A program made the position numbers and the translations under genes. A stretch of DNA of 25,191 nucleotides from a virus. Lineage: Duplodnaviria; Caudoviricetes. Shown one piece after another: positions 16,682 through 24,893 of this stretch (positions are counted from its first letter, which is position 1; each line of letters starts with the position of its first letter). The stretch spans positions 1 through 25,191 of the IMG/VR virus record IMGVR_UViG_3300047461_000116. One strand, given 5' to 3'. The notes under the pieces are model-generated. The model had not been told where the DNA came from. It was given only the letters and a program-made list of their open reading frames with translations, and did no database searches.

Positions 16682-17242
16682 TTAACTCCGTTTGATGGAA
16701 ACGTTACCCGGCCCACTGATTCTAATGCCGTTCAAATAACCCTGAACAATCGGTGGAATACGATCCAAACCGACAGCACCAAACTGATTTGGTGTGACAT
16801 TCAAGCTGCCGATACTGACGTTCTTGTAATCCTCAAGACCGCTTAGGCCGATGCCATCCTTGTTGTTGTTTAGATAAACAGCAAGCACCGCTTGTGCTTT
16901 TTTGACCCGCTCAGGGATCTCTTCGTCGGTGTAGTAATCAGTGGTAATACGAAACGGAAAACCAACGCTGTAAGTGTTGATATACGTCCCAGGGCGCCTG
17001 ACACCAGTTCGCGGCCATTCAAGCGCCTGCGTATCAGTTGCCTTTGCACCTAGAAACCGCTCGCGATCAATGCGCTGCGCAGCGGTATAAAGGGCACGAT
17101 TCTTTTGATCCGTGGTAGCACTTGCCCACGCAGTAACGTCATCATCTTCGATCAAGCCGTCGATGATATCTTGTGCGTCACTCAGCGTCAGGTAACTGTT
17201 GGCGCTTGCGCCGCCCGCTGTTGCGTCGATTGAGATTGCCAT
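16682..17242 (-). CDS. Head-tail adaptor (family often annotated as DnaT-like ssDNA-binding)
   Basis: ANSYLTLSDA, ALYTAAQRID, QALEWPR and IPERVKKAQAVLA motifs; lies after the capsid genes. Confidence 0.85.
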   Translation of the reverse strand: MAISIDATAGGASANSYLTLSDAQDIIDGLIEDDDVTAWASATTDQKNRALYTAAQRIDRERFLGAKATDTQALEWPRTGVRRPGTYINTYSVGFPFRITTDYYTDEEIPERVKKAQAVLAVYLNNNKDGIGLSGLEDYKNVSIGSLNVTPNQFGAVGLDRIPPIVQGYLNGIRISGPGNVSIKRS

Positions 17243-17351
17243 CGGCCTTCACGGTCCGTTTTTTAGATTTTGGCGCGTCAACAGAAGAAGAGGCCACCGC
17301 ATTTGCGGCAGCCTCAATCTCATGTTTTCGCCGGAAAGCGAACAACCCCAT
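17178..17351 (-). CDS. Small basic hypothetical protein (57 aa)
   Basis: Not in the track (<60 aa): MGLFAFRRKHEIEAAANAVASSSVDAPKSKKRTVKADGNLNRRNSGRRKRQQLPDAE; TGATG coupling at 17349-17353; fills the gap and overlaps the adaptor gene by 65 nt. Confidence 0.65.
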   Translation of the reverse strand: MGLFAFRRKHEIEAAANAVASSSVDAPKSKKRTVKADGNLNRRNSGRRKRQQLPDAE

Positions 17352-17713
17352 CAGGAAGCTGCACTCTTGATGACAACAAAGTTCAGCACAAGGGCTTCAC
17401 CTGCAGTCGAACCGACGTTGGAAAGGGTCACATCGAAAGACCCAGCAGCAACGGCGCTCACACTTGCGATGTAAGTACCGGTGCTTGCACCAGATTGCAC
17501 GCAGACAGACACCACATCGGTGGCGGCCACTTCGCTGTTAGTAACGGTGAAGGAAACTTCAGCCGCACCAGCAAGGGAAGCGTCGTCAGTGGTGATCTGA
17601 CCGCAGGGCTGGTTCAGGGTTACGCCAGTGGACTTATCGGTCAACTGGGTAACAGCGCCGCCTTTGACATAGCCAATGGCTTTGCCGGCGGTTACTTCAA
17701 AGAGGGATGCCAT
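17351..17713 (-). CDS. Putative capsid decoration/cement protein (120 aa)
   Basis: Beta-rich, Ala/Ser/Thr/Val-rich protein directly after the capsid gene with a GAGGT RBS. Confidence 0.6.
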   Translation of the reverse strand: MASLFEVTAGKAIGYVKGGAVTQLTDKSTGVTLNQPCGQITTDDASLAGAAEVSFTVTNSEVAATDVVSVCVQSGASTGTYIASVSAVAAGSFDVTLSNVGSTAGEALVLNFVVIKSAAS

Positions 17714-17724
17714 GGTTAATTACC

Positions 17725-18750
17725 TCAGTCTTGGTTGGAAACGTTGGTAATACGCACGATCCCGACGTTCTTGGTCTCAAAGACTTTCGTCCAGTTAGAC
17801 GCAGTTTCGAGAACAGTGCGGGTCGGGTTCACGGTTGCAGAACCGTACTTAGCACCAACGGGGTGGTACACATAATGAGCGTCAAGGCTCATTGCATCGG
17901 ATTTGGCAAGGATGTCCCGGTCTTGCTCGATGTCGAGGCCGGTTTGCTCGCCAGATGCAACAGCGCCAGGAGTGAATGCATAAGTTGCATACTCGGTTGA
18001 AGAACCAGAGCCTGCAGTCTGCACATCGTCGCTAACAATCACGCGCATTCCCATGTAAACGGGAACGGAAGGATTGCCGAACTGGCCGCTCACATCACCA
18101 CCTGACTGGGTGGTAGAAGTGCCGCGTGCATCTTCAGTGCTGACGTACTGAATTGCGTTGCGCTCAACGAGGTCGTAGTAAACCTTGCTGTGCATACAAA
18201 GCACAGAAAGCTTCTCGCCTTGGTCGCCCAGAATTGACCGAGCTTTTGCAATCTGACGCGCAGAAAGTGCGGTCGGAGTGTCACCAGACTCAGAGTCAAT
18301 GCACAGATCAAAGAATGCGCTGCTGCTGGTGTTGGCGTTCAGGGAACCGAACACACCGCTAAGGGTGGAAATCAGATCCTTTTGACGCTGGTGCGCAATG
18401 TAGCCAGCAAGTTTTTGACCAATAGCGGCCATAGGGTCCGAACCAGCCGCGAGGCTTGCGAGATCACGCGATTCGAACGCACGTCCCCTGTGGAGGATGA
18501 CGGCAGTTTGCTGGTTGGTTGTGATTTTGCCGGGAGTCAGTGAAGAGCTATCGGTCAGCACTTCAAAGTCGCCAGCCAGGTTTGCTGCGAAAGCAGGAAC
18601 CTTGACGAAATCACCGCCCTCGGTGGCATTCAGTTCCGCCATCGGAGACACAACACCGGACTGCAGGAATGCATCCCGACGGGTGGTCTCTTCAATGATG
18701 TACGGGGTAAATACCTCGGGTACGATGATATCGCTACGCAGGGTAGCCAT
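17725..18750 (-). CDS. Major capsid protein (341 aa)
   Basis: TLRSDIIVPEVFTPY, GGDFVKVP, LTPGKIT, GSDPMAAIG, MHSKVYYDL, YMGMRVIVSDD and IEQDRDILA motifs of HK97-fold coat proteins. Confidence 0.95.
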   Translation of the reverse strand: MATLRSDIIVPEVFTPYIIEETTRRDAFLQSGVVSPMAELNATEGGDFVKVPAFAANLAGDFEVLTDSSSLTPGKITTNQQTAVILHRGRAFESRDLASLAAGSDPMAAIGQKLAGYIAHQRQKDLISTLSGVFGSLNANTSSSAFFDLCIDSESGDTPTALSARQIAKARSILGDQGEKLSVLCMHSKVYYDLVERNAIQYVSTEDARGTSTTQSGGDVSGQFGNPSVPVYMGMRVIVSDDVQTAGSGSSTEYATYAFTPGAVASGEQTGLDIEQDRDILAKSDAMSLDAHYVYHPVGAKYGSATVNPTRTVLETASNWTKVFETKNVGIVRITNVSNQD

Positions 18751-18781
18751 AACAAATTACCAAAAAAAGGTTTACTGAGTC

Positions 18782-18816
18782 GGGCACAGCCCTTGTTGGC
18801 TCAGCACAGCCTCGCC
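18782..18816 (-). promoter_or_regulatory. Two CUGUG-loop hairpins in the capsid gene leader
   Basis: GGC-GA-GG-CTGTG-CT-GA-GCC (18816-18798) and GGG-CTGTG-CCC (18792-18782). Confidence 0.6.
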
Positions 18817-18827
18817 GTGATTAGATA

Positions 18828-19502
18828 CTAACGACCAGCTGCAAGTTTGAGCCTTTCGTACAAATCACGATCAGTGCGAGCCAAACGCATCTGTTCGGTG
18901 ATGTTGTAATGTTCTGGGCTGAACGGATTCTTCGTTCCTGCAGGAATGTCGCCGTTGCCGCGACTTGTCGGTGCGCCAGAACCTTGTGGTTTAGGTGCTT
19001 TCTGCATCCAGTCAGGCACATTTTGTTTCGCCCAGTCAGATACAGGTGTGCGCTGATAACCGTCAACCACTACAACGGTGCCATCAGATTCGCGCTCGAT
19101 CTGATTGCGATCTAGCTTCGTGTTCAGCACTAGCTCAGGATCATGCACAACATCAGCCAATGCACTAACAGCAGGGCTGATTAACTCAAGTTCACGAATA
19201 CGGGCCTCAAGTTCTGCAATCCGCTTGTCTTTTTCAGACGTTGCTTCGCGGAACTGTTGTTCAAGTGCTTGGCGGGCTTCGTCATACTTGCCCTTTGACT
19301 CAAGCTTCGATTGTTCGACGCTGCGCTTGAACTCGATCAGCTCGTTGACATCGACGCCATCAGGAACAGCTTTTGACTGTTGCTTGGCTTTCTTGTACTC
19401 ATCTAGAAGCTCGGCATTTTTGCGCCGCATTGCTTCTAGTTCGTTTTGCAGATTAGACAGTTCTGCATTTTGCTCCACAGGAGCAGTTTGCTCTTCAGAC
19501 AT
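18828..19502 (-). CDS. Capsid scaffolding protein (224 aa)
   Basis: Acidic coiled coil with a GKYDEA motif and C-terminal GSGAP...KNPF...NITEQMRL...DLYERLK; immediately before the capsid gene. Confidence 0.85.
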   Translation of the reverse strand: MSEEQTAPVEQNAELSNLQNELEAMRRKNAELLDEYKKAKQQSKAVPDGVDVNELIEFKRSVEQSKLESKGKYDEARQALEQQFREATSEKDKRIAELEARIRELELISPAVSALADVVHDPELVLNTKLDRNQIERESDGTVVVVDGYQRTPVSDWAKQNVPDWMQKAPKPQGSGAPTSRGNGDIPAGTKNPFSPEHYNITEQMRLARTDRDLYERLKLAAGR

Positions 19503-19519
19503 TTAACCCACAGGGCTAA
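19471..19519 (-). promoter_or_regulatory. Two CUGUG-loop hairpins flanking the scaffold start codon
   Basis: TTAGCC-CTGTG-GGTTAA abuts the ATG (19519-19503); TGCTC-CTGTG-GAGCA lies in codons 6-11 (19485-19471). Confidence 0.65.
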
Positions 19520-19529
19520 TTTGCAGGCT

Positions 19530-19541
19530 TAGTTTACACCT
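19530..19541 (-). promoter_or_regulatory. Putative -10 element upstream of the scaffold gene
   Basis: AGGTG-TAAACT-A fits TAnnnT; the same GTAAACTA precedes the portal gene. Confidence 0.45.
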
Positions 19542-19544
19542 TTT

Positions 19545-19820
19545 CTACCATTTGGTTTTATTTGACCAGTAGGCTGCAGACATTTTGCCCTTGGCAATGT
19601 TTTGCGCATGTCGCGCCTTAAATGATGCGCGGCGTTCTTTGGCCGCTTTACTTTCACCACTACGACGCGGTGAACCTGAAACGCCTTGTTGACCAAAGCG
19701 AATCAGTTTCACCTTGTCGCCTTCTTTCGCAAGTACCGCGTGCGATTTCTTCGGATGACCTGGCGTCCGCTTCGGTTTGTTGTAACCGCTGAATTCTTCG
19801 CCGCGATACTTGATGCTCAT
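19545..19820 (-). CDS. Small basic conserved viral protein (91 aa; resembles DUF5754-like proteins)
   Basis: KVKLIRFGQQG, RRASFKARH and SAAYWS motifs familiar from marine phage genomes; the family name is tentative. Confidence 0.65.
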   Translation of the reverse strand: MSIKYRGEEFSGYNKPKRTPGHPKKSHAVLAKEGDKVKLIRFGQQGVSGSPRRSGESKAAKERRASFKARHAQNIAKGKMSAAYWSNKTKW

Positions 19821-20041
19821 TTACGCTTCGGCGCGGAACGCAACTGTGAACGACGTTTCAACACAGGGTTGCCCGTGCTTTCCGACTTGATGCGGATCAC
19901 CGGGTCTTCCTTGCTGCCGACTCGGGTGACAGTGCCACCGCTCGGTCCTTTAACAGATGCCCGTGTACCTGCAGAACCAGTTACGACACCGAAGGTCCGC
20001 TTGCCTTGATACATCCAACTAACGCGCTGTCCTTTTTTCAT
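19817..20041 (-). CDS. Small Tudor/SH3-like protein (DUF2945/Hva1-Tudor-like, 74 aa)
   Basis: KKGQRVSW......FGVV and R.GSKEDPVIRIKSESTG..VLKRRSQL pattern; ATGA coupling on both sides. Confidence 0.65.
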   Translation of the reverse strand: MKKGQRVSWMYQGKRTFGVVTGSAGTRASVKGPSGGTVTRVGSKEDPVIRIKSESTGNPVLKRRSQLRSAPKRK

Positions 20042-20109
20042 TTTTTCTTGCTGCCTTTTTTCTTGACCGGTTTGGCGGGCTTTTTAGGGCCTTTCATGTA
20101 GCCAGGCAT
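20038..20109 (-). CDS. Lysine-rich microprotein (23 aa)
   Basis: MPGYMKGPKKPAKPVKKKGSKKK*; fills the gap and ends in an ATGA overlap with the next gene. Confidence 0.6.
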   Translation of the reverse strand: MPGYMKGPKKPAKPVKKKGSKKK

Positions 20110-20127
20110 GACAATGAAGACGCTGCT

Positions 20128-21378
20128 TCAATTTATCCGGCCGTAACGTTTCCGCAGGTCGGCCAGTGTTAATTCACTACCGTCATCGCGTACAAGCTTT
20201 GCGATTGCATCACGCGGGCCATACTTGCGGGAAAGCCTTTTGAAGTATGGAACTCGTGATTCTCCTAATGCTTCTACTTGTCGTGATTTGCCTTGCTTAG
20301 AAAGCCATTCGCCATAACTCTGATTTGCAGGCACCATGCCACCCTGCGCAGCACGACGGCCAACTGGTAGCGGTGTTTCGCCTTCCTCTTGTTCAATCAC
20401 CGGAACAGTCGTGGACCTGCAGTTGAAATGCTGCGGTGGTTTTGGTCCCTTGCCGTATTCAAACTCGCGGCCATCTAATGCACGACAGATTGCAGAGGTG
20501 CGCGTATCAAGCGTTGCGACGTAGCGATATCGCTTGGTGATGTCTTGGTTTGCCTCGTAGACCTGTTGCGATGCAGCGTTCGCGACTTGATTCACGCTGG
20601 TGCGCACAAGGGTCAGCACTTGGCTGTTCGTCACCCTCGTTAGTTCGCCGCCTGCTTTCTGCAGTTGCTTGACTGACAAGCCAGCTGCACGCACTTGACC
20701 GCGCGACAACGGACCAATATCACCAAAATCCAGCCGACCTTTGATGCGGTTTGCGATTTCCTGTGTTGGCTCACCAGTTAGCAAACCTTGCCGCACAACC
20801 TGCGCAAAACGTTCAGCCTGCTTCTCTGCAATGCCGCGAAATGCTTTGTTGACGACTTGACCGCTTGGCAACGTGATCGCCGTGCCTTGCGTTGCAGTAA
20901 GGCTGAACCTCTGCGGTGATCCTTCAACAGCAGCGAACAAGTCATCGCTAAGCGTCACAACTCCGATCTGCGTCGGGTCAGTCATCACGACCGATTGTGC
21001 AAACTGCGGTGAAATCTCAACCGTGTTGACAGCAGTGCGCGAACCAGCCGGCAAAGCTTGTTCCAGCTGACCTTGTACAAATTCAGACTGCAGTTCAGCC
21101 AAACCCTGCAACTCTGACGCAGTGAGCAACGAACTGTCGCCCGCCCAGGTGTCGAGTGATTCCTTAAGTTGTGCCAATATCGACCGCAACCGTGCGGCCT
21201 TTGCTGGCGCAGTAATTGGCTGTAATTCACCTTCAGTAACGTTCGGAATCAGCCTCTGCAGTTGATCTACAGAGTCCAAAATAATACGGTTGTAATTTTC
21301 GATGATCTGCCGTGCAACACTGTTGCTGTAACGATTCAGATCAATCGCATTTCTGAACAAAACTGAGGGTGTGCTCAT
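20128..21378 (-). CDS. Minor head protein (Mu gpF/SPP1 gp7 family)
   Basis: LVRTSVNQVAN, YRYVATLDTRTSAICRALDG, PPQHFNCRSTTVP and SYGEWL motifs. Confidence 0.92.
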   Translation of the reverse strand: MSTPSVLFRNAIDLNRYSNSVARQIIENYNRIILDSVDQLQRLIPNVTEGELQPITAPAKAARLRSILAQLKESLDTWAGDSSLLTASELQGLAELQSEFVQGQLEQALPAGSRTAVNTVEISPQFAQSVVMTDPTQIGVVTLSDDLFAAVEGSPQRFSLTATQGTAITLPSGQVVNKAFRGIAEKQAERFAQVVRQGLLTGEPTQEIANRIKGRLDFGDIGPLSRGQVRAAGLSVKQLQKAGGELTRVTNSQVLTLVRTSVNQVANAASQQVYEANQDITKRYRYVATLDTRTSAICRALDGREFEYGKGPKPPQHFNCRSTTVPVIEQEEGETPLPVGRRAAQGGMVPANQSYGEWLSKQGKSRQVEALGESRVPYFKRLSRKYGPRDAIAKLVRDDGSELTLADLRKRYGRIN

Positions 21379-23774: not shown

Positions 23775-24893
23775 TTAACGCATTGACCTTGGCAACCTAA
23801 AACCACGGCGCGTTTTGTTGACTGATTTCAAGGCTTGCTTCGGATCCTTGTAAAACTCAAGGGCTCTTTCAGCGCGAAGATTGCCGCGTGTCATCTTTTG
23901 AGAAGGTCGCCTGATCATGGTTGATCCTGGCTTGTTACGGGTGTCAGCAGTACGGGCAAGGTTTGCTTGTGCTCGTTGCTCACGGCCAGCCCTCGTCAGC
24001 AACTTCACCTGTTGCGATGGTGCCATGCCTTTGATCGTGGCTTTTACCTCGCTGACTTTGCGGCCAGATTTAGCAGCGAAGTCCTTAGCAAGCTGATCGC
24101 CGTACTTGCCGCGAAGTGCTTTAGCGCGTGATTGATCAGACTTGAATTGCGCGTTGCGTGCTCGGCTTTCAGCGCGTTTAGTTGTGCGCTGCTGTGTGAC
24201 GTTGCGGGTGATCTCACTGTCAAGGCGACGACCGCGTGAACCACGCATCGGCACGTTTACAGAAGCAGTGTCGCCGCGTCGCCGTGCTGCATTCTTCGCC
24301 GCAAGTCGTTGACTGGCTGCACGTCGTTCGCGTTGCGCTCTGATCGAGTTATCACGACCAGGCAGCTGACCGGTTCTTGTGAAATCTTGCGCACGCTTCA
24401 ACGTCAAAGAACGCTTAATCGCTTTGTCGTATTGACGCGGATTTGGCAAGTTTCCATAACGAGTCATGTTCCGCAGGTTCGCTTCATTCACAGCGACCTT
24501 GCGATCAACGCGACGCGCAACAGTTCTCGGGTCATTGCCTTTGGTGCGTGGTTTGGCAACTGTTGATGCAGGACGTTGAGCACGAATCCGACGCGCTTTG
24601 GGTTGCGCAGGAATCACAGAGCCTCGATCAGCTATCAATCTGCGCTTGGCTGCAGTTCTGAGCTTCAGGCGATTTGTTGCCTGTTCGCGTGCGCTTGAAA
24701 CTTTCGGCTTTTCAGTGCGCCTTGCCTTGATCGTGCTGCGCTTTGTCGTTCCACGCTTGGATTCACCAGGCGTTGCTTTCATCGTTTGCGCTTTGCGTTT
24801 ATTGCCGCTTGCTGTTCTTAAACGACCGCCGCGAGCCGTTGCACCTGTGGTTGCAAATCTGCCGCGATTGTCGCGTACATATCGACGGGCCAT
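23775..24893 (-). CDS. Highly Arg/Lys-rich hypothetical protein (372 aa)
   Basis: Long ORF in operon orientation; about 28% R+K by hand count, no Cys or Trp; N-terminal RDNRGRFA motif. Confidence 0.8.
   Translation of the reverse strand: MARRYVRDNRGRFATTGATARGGRLRTASGNKRKAQTMKATPGESKRGTTKRSTIKARRTEKPKVSSAREQATNRLKLRTAAKRRLIADRGSVIPAQPKARRIRAQRPASTVAKPRTKGNDPRTVARRVDRKVAVNEANLRNMTRYGNLPNPRQYDKAIKRSLTLKRAQDFTRTGQLPGRDNSIRAQRERRAASQRLAAKNAARRRGDTASVNVPMRGSRGRRLDSEITRNVTQQRTTKRAESRARNAQFKSDQSRAKALRGKYGDQLAKDFAAKSGRKVSEVKATIKGMAPSQQVKLLTRAGREQRAQANLARTADTRNKPGSTMIRRPSQKMTRGNLRAERALEFYKDPKQALKSVNKTRRGFRLPRSMR

Follow-up and report, generated by a model that had tools for sequence, protein, structure and literature searches.

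Hairpins at the scaffold and capsid genes of cyanobacterial siphoviruses: a conserved, probable RNA operator system with the scaffold N-terminal helix as its likely reader

What do four hairpins that carry the same loop do at the scaffold and capsid genes of a tailed phage, and which molecule, if any, reads them? The window analysed here, a stretch of 25,191 nucleotides, covers the head-tail region of a siphovirus, with genes for the portal, a minor head protein, a Tudor-domain protein, a 91-aa basic protein, the scaffold and the capsid. The head scaffolding protein, which is the proposed reader of the hairpins, has 224 aa and is encoded on the minus strand at 18828..19502 (phrog_206, E 4.7e-27); its homologue in phage S-H1 is annotated as 'putative scaffold protein'. 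The major capsid protein gene lies on the same strand at 17725..18750 (phrog_247, E 2.3e-78; PF20036). Some further features of the minus strand may be recorded here: an AbrB-like regulator gene (PF14250; 23091-23435) immediately upstream of the portal gene, a very basic 372-aa ORF (23775-24893) directly after the terminase end, which has no Pfam or PHROG match, and an unannotated 57-aa Arg/Lys-rich ORF (17178-17351) between the post-capsid gene and the head-tail adaptor, which overlaps the adaptor start. Within the latter ORF, 3′ of the capsid gene and the next gene, stands a terminator-like hairpin of 11 pairs with a U-rich tail (17290-17315).

The four hairpins were found on the coding (minus) strand, where the initial annotation had placed them. 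H1 (19503-19519), with the loop C(UGU)G, ends directly before the scaffold ATG at 19502, and H2 (19471-19485), with the same loop, falls within scaffold codons 6-11. In the capsid leader, H3 (18798-18816), which contains a purine internal loop, stands where the capsid message is predicted to begin, and H4 (18782-18792; GGG-C(UGU)G-CCC) has its loop 39 nt upstream of the capsid AUG. They had been described as open CTGTG pentaloops; instead, each hairpin alone folds as a UGU triloop closed by a C-G pair. The excess of such hairpins is weak when counted in the window: at least three flanking pairs are present at 3 of 17 minus-strand CTGTG occurrences against a background of 5.6% (p = 0.067), and a cluster rule for CTGTG hairpins, defined post hoc after the data had been viewed, is satisfied in 1 of 60 shuffles. 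The 101-nt capsid leader folds no better than its shuffles (z +0.41), and the lowest-energy fold of the window's own leader excludes H3. These window-only statistics are weak; it is relatives that show the hairpins to be real.

Relatives were collected via the scaffold protein, the capsid protein and DNA pattern searches, and all four hairpins recur in a large family of cyanobacterial siphoviruses with hundreds of members. Among cultured phages a matching scaffold was found in only 8 records, which belong to Synechococcus and Prochlorococcus siphoviruses (KBS-S-2A, S-H1, MED4-184 and their kin); S-H1 has all four hairpin sites, KBS-S-2A and MED4-184 the capsid pair only. Across the scaffold and capsid leaders of related phages the hairpins are conserved and their stems covary, so that the differing, compensating stems noticed in the window are borne out. 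For H1, 59 unique 17-mers have 91.8% of their cells paired and contain 60 two-sided changes, where shuffles have 18.6 (0 of 500). When the partners are slid by one column, pairing falls from 91.8% to 47.5-53.4%. Because these 59 rows had been chosen by a stem rule, the count was redone with anchoring on loop text and position only. In the resulting 65 unique contexts pairs 1-3 are Watson-Crick in 62, 59 and 57, respectively; 12 cells are G·U and no cell is A·C, a bias that points to the mRNA strand; the loop text is missing in 21 upstream (H1) contexts. H2 keeps one frame in 79 of 79 unique contexts, coding for 11 different dipeptides, and is missing in 2 contexts. Synonymous sites are constrained: in 42 of 42 starts of loop type A (see below) that have H1, the Pro-Val codons preserve the loop, compared with 2 of 32 starts that lack H1. 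H4 shows little covariation because its stem is nearly invariant. The idea of an RNA operator common to the scaffold and capsid messages is thus backed by covariation, strand bias and synonymous-site constraint and, to judge from sequence comparison, the four hairpins are real and conserved and probably form an RNA operator system. Some loci have a different layout. Upstream of the scaffold ATG of L311, L312, L314, L315 and L596 the H1 stem is retained and its loop is altered to a non-matching sequence, which suggests that autoregulation was lost with the structure retained; the capsid leader of L596 contains three UUGUG loops, and in L650 and L651 the scaffold stop is followed by other sequence instead of the capsid leader.

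The loop had been taken as invariant, and this holds within one phage but not across relatives, where four loop types occur in a coded way. Across the family the loop reads Y-URY-G, a triloop closed by Y-G, and its types are A (YUGUG), B (YUGCG), C (YUACG, the commonest) and D (YUAUG). A UNCG tetraloop in the register C(UNCG)G was rejected, since the stems pair in the Y-(URY)-G register instead. With the loop left unspecified in the search pattern, Y-(U/C)RY-G was recovered in 92 of 93 unique contexts among the matches listed. H1 and H4 have the same loop core in 200 of 201 unique contexts, and where all four sites are present (193 contexts) the cores agree in 192. Among 32 near-complete genomes, 58 of 58 hairpins near the scaffold are of the phage's own type, and a genome-wide regulon was not detected in this set: outside the scaffold region own-type hairpins show no excess (11 of 1552, 12 of 2515 and 4 of 1003 loop occurrences), which resembles the level of other types (0.2-1.3%). 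Two more loop classes were seen in the scaffold-capsid gap, UUUGCA-like hexaloops (L424, L428, L435, L436) and longer AG..GC loops (L431, L440, L441), each paired with a different scaffold N-terminal segment.

As candidate binders, the scaffold and the adjacent small basic and Tudor proteins had been proposed; the scaffold is supported, its N-terminal residues tracking loop type, but the adjacent proteins are not, being 98-100% identical across types. The proposed RNA-reading segment, scaffold residues 18-39 (19386..19451, minus strand), is a heptad-repeat helix with Asn29 at 'a', on which the residue alignment was anchored, and it predicts loop type through two residues. The residue at -3 (Arg26 in the window; 19425..19427, minus) is non-acidic where loop position 4 is U and Asp or Glu where it is C, and the residue at +6 (Glu35; 19398..19400, minus) is Glu or Asp where loop position 3 is G and Lys where it is A. 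This rule predicts the H4 loop of the capsid leader, about 600 nt away, in 313 of the 316 unique scaffolds that have the Asn motif and a readable H4, against an agreement of about 36% that random pairing at the observed type frequencies would give by arithmetic. It was correct in 21 of 21 held-out viral segment-loop pairs from later searches; of 16 new metagenome segments it fitted 14 (78 of the 80 loci analysed). A prediction for type D, which is a single lineage, was written down beforehand and came half true: Lys was found at +6, and -3 was Leu rather than Arg, for which reason the rule at -3 was broadened from Arg to 'non-acidic'. Different types share half-segments in a 2x2 pattern corresponding to single loop bases, and the rule is also valid in lineages without H1/H2 (L089, L308, KBS-S-2A, MED4-184-like, L596, L652). 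Twelve more distant loci all have type A residues; eight of them have four A hairpins, two have the capsid pair only, and in the remaining two H1/H2 are present and other sequence follows the scaffold. Among 16 MED4-like loci without the Asn motif, 9 keep Arg at -3, Asp at +6 and UUGUG loops, 4 have a new segment with UUUGCA/UGUGCG loops at both capsid-leader sites, and 3 have another segment with longer AG..GC loops; in these 7 loci with a replaced segment, the loops at both capsid-leader sites belong to new classes. A CCGUG loop variant accompanies Lys at +5 in L007, L471 and L474. Each segment type may go back to few origins, so that these counts are not of independent events. The heptad motif Leu-x-x-Lys-Asn-x-Glu-Leu-Leu recurs in many distant scaffolds of this family (proteins P0192-P0269). 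In five of five loci of proteobacterial prophages, whose distant scaffolds share the Asn-heptad motif, no matching hairpin pairs were found by eye.

AlphaFold predicts a single helix over scaffold residues 10-44 (block pLDDT 74-87 for residues 11-40; pTM 0.37), and in 160 unique segments hydrophobic residues occupy -11, -7, -4, +3 and +7 in 94-100%, as in a heptad repeat. In this register, with Asn at 'a' (fixed by the anchor), -3 takes the 'e' and +6 the 'g' position, where salt bridges of a coiled coil could also drive covariation. In an ideal parallel dimer, a face combines residues -3 and +4 from one chain with -1, +2 and +6 from its partner, the distance between -3 and +6 being about 18 Å; the dimer has two equivalent faces of this kind, which would fit the occurrence of the hairpins in pairs; this geometry is idealised and is not a model of the scaffold itself. 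Structure searches by sequence and by fold against the PDB gave no match for the scaffold at E up to 0.001.

Since the loop type and two N-terminal helix residues change in concert, the scaffold is the likely binder, and the best explanation is that the hairpins are probably RNA operators bound by unassembled scaffold, which would repress its own translation and to whose free form capsid synthesis would likely be coupled. Such control would keep the output of the two main head proteins in balance. Two helices would pair in parallel as a dimeric coiled coil, offering each hairpin of a pair one of two equivalent faces. Free scaffold dimer would bind H1 and H2, which flank the AUG, and block initiation in a P22-like feedback, and capsid assembly would use up free scaffold and so relieve the block. 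Predicted -10 boxes precede both pairs on the minus strand, TAAACT (19531..19536) before H1 and TAGTAT (18825..18830), which overlaps the scaffold stop, before H3. In relatives, 206 of 232 contexts have TAnnnT at a distance of 14-30 nt ahead of the H1 loop, compared with 10 for a control window. The scaffold stop is covered by TAnnnT in 218 of 227 contexts; there the stop codon supplies the TA, and the informative letter is the last T. These boxes suggest that each pair probably starts its own transcript, at the 5′ end of which it would sit; a consensus promoter scan of the window called neither -10 site. In the lineage of L021, L022, L027, L089 and L095 a TTGACA-type -35 box precedes the -10 box upstream of H1, and this promoter region is common to types A, B and C.

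The sign of the effect at the capsid leader is the least certain part of this explanation. We lean slightly towards a positive one, in which binding to H3 and H4 would protect the 5′ end or tether scaffold to nascent capsid, and such coupling would avoid capsid protein being made without scaffold; repression at this site is a lesser, though substantial, possibility. The capsid pair likely has the primary function, since it is retained when H1/H2 are lost. In relatives the H4 loop lies 33-45 nt upstream of the capsid AUG, and the A/U-rich leader that runs from H4 to this AUG (18751..18781 on the minus strand of the window) has, in relatives, the consensus ACACCGUAAAC followed by a U-rich run. 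The capsid-leader hairpins mostly form unaided, with a median pairing probability of 0.89 and 0.75 at 20 °C in 77 leaders; for H4 it is below 0.5 in 21 of the 77. An anti-start-codon switch was rejected, since only 3 of 77 leaders lost more than 1 kcal of opening energy when H3 and H4 were forced; no structural switch therefore supports a positive effect, the start region being left closed. Positive coupling is favoured because H3 and H4 lie outside the usual ribosome footprint, form unaided and do not open the start region. Neither gene had been thought to have an obvious SD, which is right for the scaffold (GGA-type text is absent in 222 of 232 contexts) but not for the capsid gene, as GAGG, GGAG or AGGA occurs in 86 of 220 relatives' leaders. 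An unlikely variant keeps the scaffold as binder and changes the outcome, so that it would repress both genes or act on nascent RNA by pausing or antitermination in a nut-like manner. The predicted -10 boxes just before H1 and H3 speak for it, the pairs beginning within a few bases of the predicted starts, as do the retention of the capsid pair where H1/H2 are lost, the result that no structural switch was found and the terminator-like site 3′ of the gene after the capsid gene. Yet the AUG is bracketed by H1 and H2, and within the coding sequence H2 persists at synonymous sites, the usual layout of a translational operator, and we infer that capsid repression under excess scaffold would aggravate the imbalance.

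It is also doubtful, at slightly longer odds, that the loops are read by an unlinked, fast-evolving phage or host factor, with the scaffold residues merely hitch-hiking with H1/H2. The segment does lie within about 100 nt of H2, and it follows H1/H2 in all three discordant loci (L006, L581, L601), whose H3/H4 differ in type from the segment and H1/H2; in L006 the type switch is located inside H3. Viable recombination or chimeric assembly may explain these loci, which count against the scaffold as reader. The roughly 600 nt that separate the segment from H3/H4, however, recombine freely, with identities of up to 100% across types in the scaffold middle and the last 75 residues. Cross-type pairs of at least 90% identity, counted with the three discordant loci left out, number 253 for the scaffold middle and 247 for the last 75 residues, whereas the 22-residue segment has 0. 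Between types, identity is 98-100% for the capsid and upstream genes. As scaffold body, capsid and upstream genes are near-identical across types, linkage is insufficient as an explanation. On a scaffold-body tree the type changes 32 times over 89 rows, a figure inflated by the thinning of rows within each type. Against an unlinked reader it also counts that the two-residue rule is valid without H1/H2 in several lineages, where new segments bring new loops, and that the 2x2 sharing of half-segments follows single loop bases; a host factor is further opposed by near-identical phages that differ in loop type. A very short or divergent gene could escape the BLAST survey of genes, which covered ORFs of at least 30 aa at E 1e-3 with 9 reference genomes as queries.

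That no protein is needed, an antisense or small RNA pairing with the identical loops and so forcing their match, is highly improbable. It would account for the identical loops within a phage, but it leaves the residue rule in lineages without H1/H2 unexplained; moreover, antisense hairpins are weakened by G·U pairs, and YUACG is by its sequence incapable of self-kissing. Nineteen gene families were tested for near-identical proteins occurring in different loop types. Just two of them lack cross-type pairs at 90%, namely the scaffold, whose maximum is 89%, and a 47-aa tail protein, at 88%; the latter, with 36 sequences, has no diagnostic column. The Tudor, basic 91-aa, capsid, decoration-like, adaptor, terminase and portal proteins and the small Arg-rich ORF were rejected as type determinants, being near-identical across types. 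Families present in at least 25 of the 32 near-complete genomes are all head, tail or packaging families or the antisense shadow of one, and the widest non-structural family, which we take to be RusA-like, is present in 23. The 57-aa Arg/Lys-rich ORF has relatives in 27 of 32 genomes and does not track loop type. Specific reading by the Tudor (PF11160), 91-aa basic or capsid protein is hardly credible: the first two are adjacent, basic and widely retained (the 91-aa protein in 26 of 32 genomes), but identical or 98-99% identical copies occur across loop types and no column separates the types (best balanced accuracy 0.49-0.58). As non-specific helpers these proteins may act. Sites at the DNA level, be they double-stranded operators or template-strand hairpins, deserve the least credence, for although they lie near predicted promoters and the reverse complements of two loop types, CGCAG and CGTAG, resemble stable DNA GNA triloops, the arms vary with compensation around a kept centre and the coding strand tolerates G·U (12) and not A·C (0).

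For translational autoregulation by the P22 scaffold (gp8), the 1985 work of Wyckoff and Casjens is said to be the reference. In a preprint, the N-terminus of the P22 scaffold is 'implicated' in translational autoregulation (bioRxiv 10.1101/2022.12.13.520362). As with gp8, the regulated gene encodes a head scaffolding protein (phrog_206), and the cis element (H1/H2, absent in some lineages here) lies at the scaffold translation start. The N-terminal segment is, in the present family, a candidate for the regulatory part through its strong correlation with loop type in the sequences compared. Unlike P22, where scaffold control spares the coat gene, the present phages have a hairpin pair at the capsid gene, kept even if the scaffold pair is lost, as well as defined RNA sites and a residue-base correlation. 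No P22 scaffold family is among the PHROG and Pfam matches, which sets the family apart from gp8 by profile only. By analogy, the system would work like P22 scaffold autoregulation, without being counted as a member of that type.

No Rfam model, GP20-a and GP20-b included, matched window positions 17000-21000 (E up to 10) or six loci that represent the four loop types (E up to 1), in line with the first impression of an unnamed motif. GP20 is a scaffold family. The relevant part of a recent study (Fremin et al., 2023, PMC10690425) describes GP20-a (RF02991) and GP20-b (RF03003), together with another six candidate RNAs that precede GP20 genes. Like these, the hairpins are a candidate cis-regulatory RNA directly upstream of a phage gene; unlike here, the hosts named in that part are not cyanobacteria and the binder is unnamed, so that the two are set apart by descriptions and by Rfam models. 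One unnamed cyanophage candidate RNA of Fremin et al. (2023) may overlap the present hairpins. None of the 17 window proteins scanned belongs to the CsrA family. The operators of CsrA/RsmA are GGA hairpins, with a short loop on a variable stem and paired sites for a dimer, and the lambdoid N-boxB systems have phage-type-specific pairs of loop and protein. The present system resembles both in its short loop on a variable stem, CsrA in its paired sites and N-boxB in its type-specific loop-protein pairs, and differs from them in that the loop is neither GGA nor GNRA-like (Y-URY-G) and its candidate reader, a coiled coil, belongs to an assembly protein. A literature search largely confined to open-access papers found no description of a Y-URY-G hairpin motif or of a residue-to-base code; what appears to be new is the correlation, which names the likely reader and its predicted code.

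How phages match scaffold output to capsid output is an old question, for which the P22 N-terminus is, in the text cited above, only 'implicated'. Natural variation in the present family provides the RNA site, a candidate reader of 22 residues, a predicted residue-to-base code and four natural protein-RNA pairs. Somewhat short of an even chance, it is possible that a leucine-zipper-like coiled coil serves as a sequence-specific reader of RNA triloops with a modular base code of two to three residues; its dimer would clamp two hairpins, repress its own message and license capsid synthesis, as a ratio controller whose type-specific codes would prevent cross-regulation among co-infecting relatives. 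If this holds, RNA loops would be read in a simple code by a short coiled coil, an uncommon kind of RNA-binding module, and this would hint at where the readers of similar head-gene operators in other phages may be sought.
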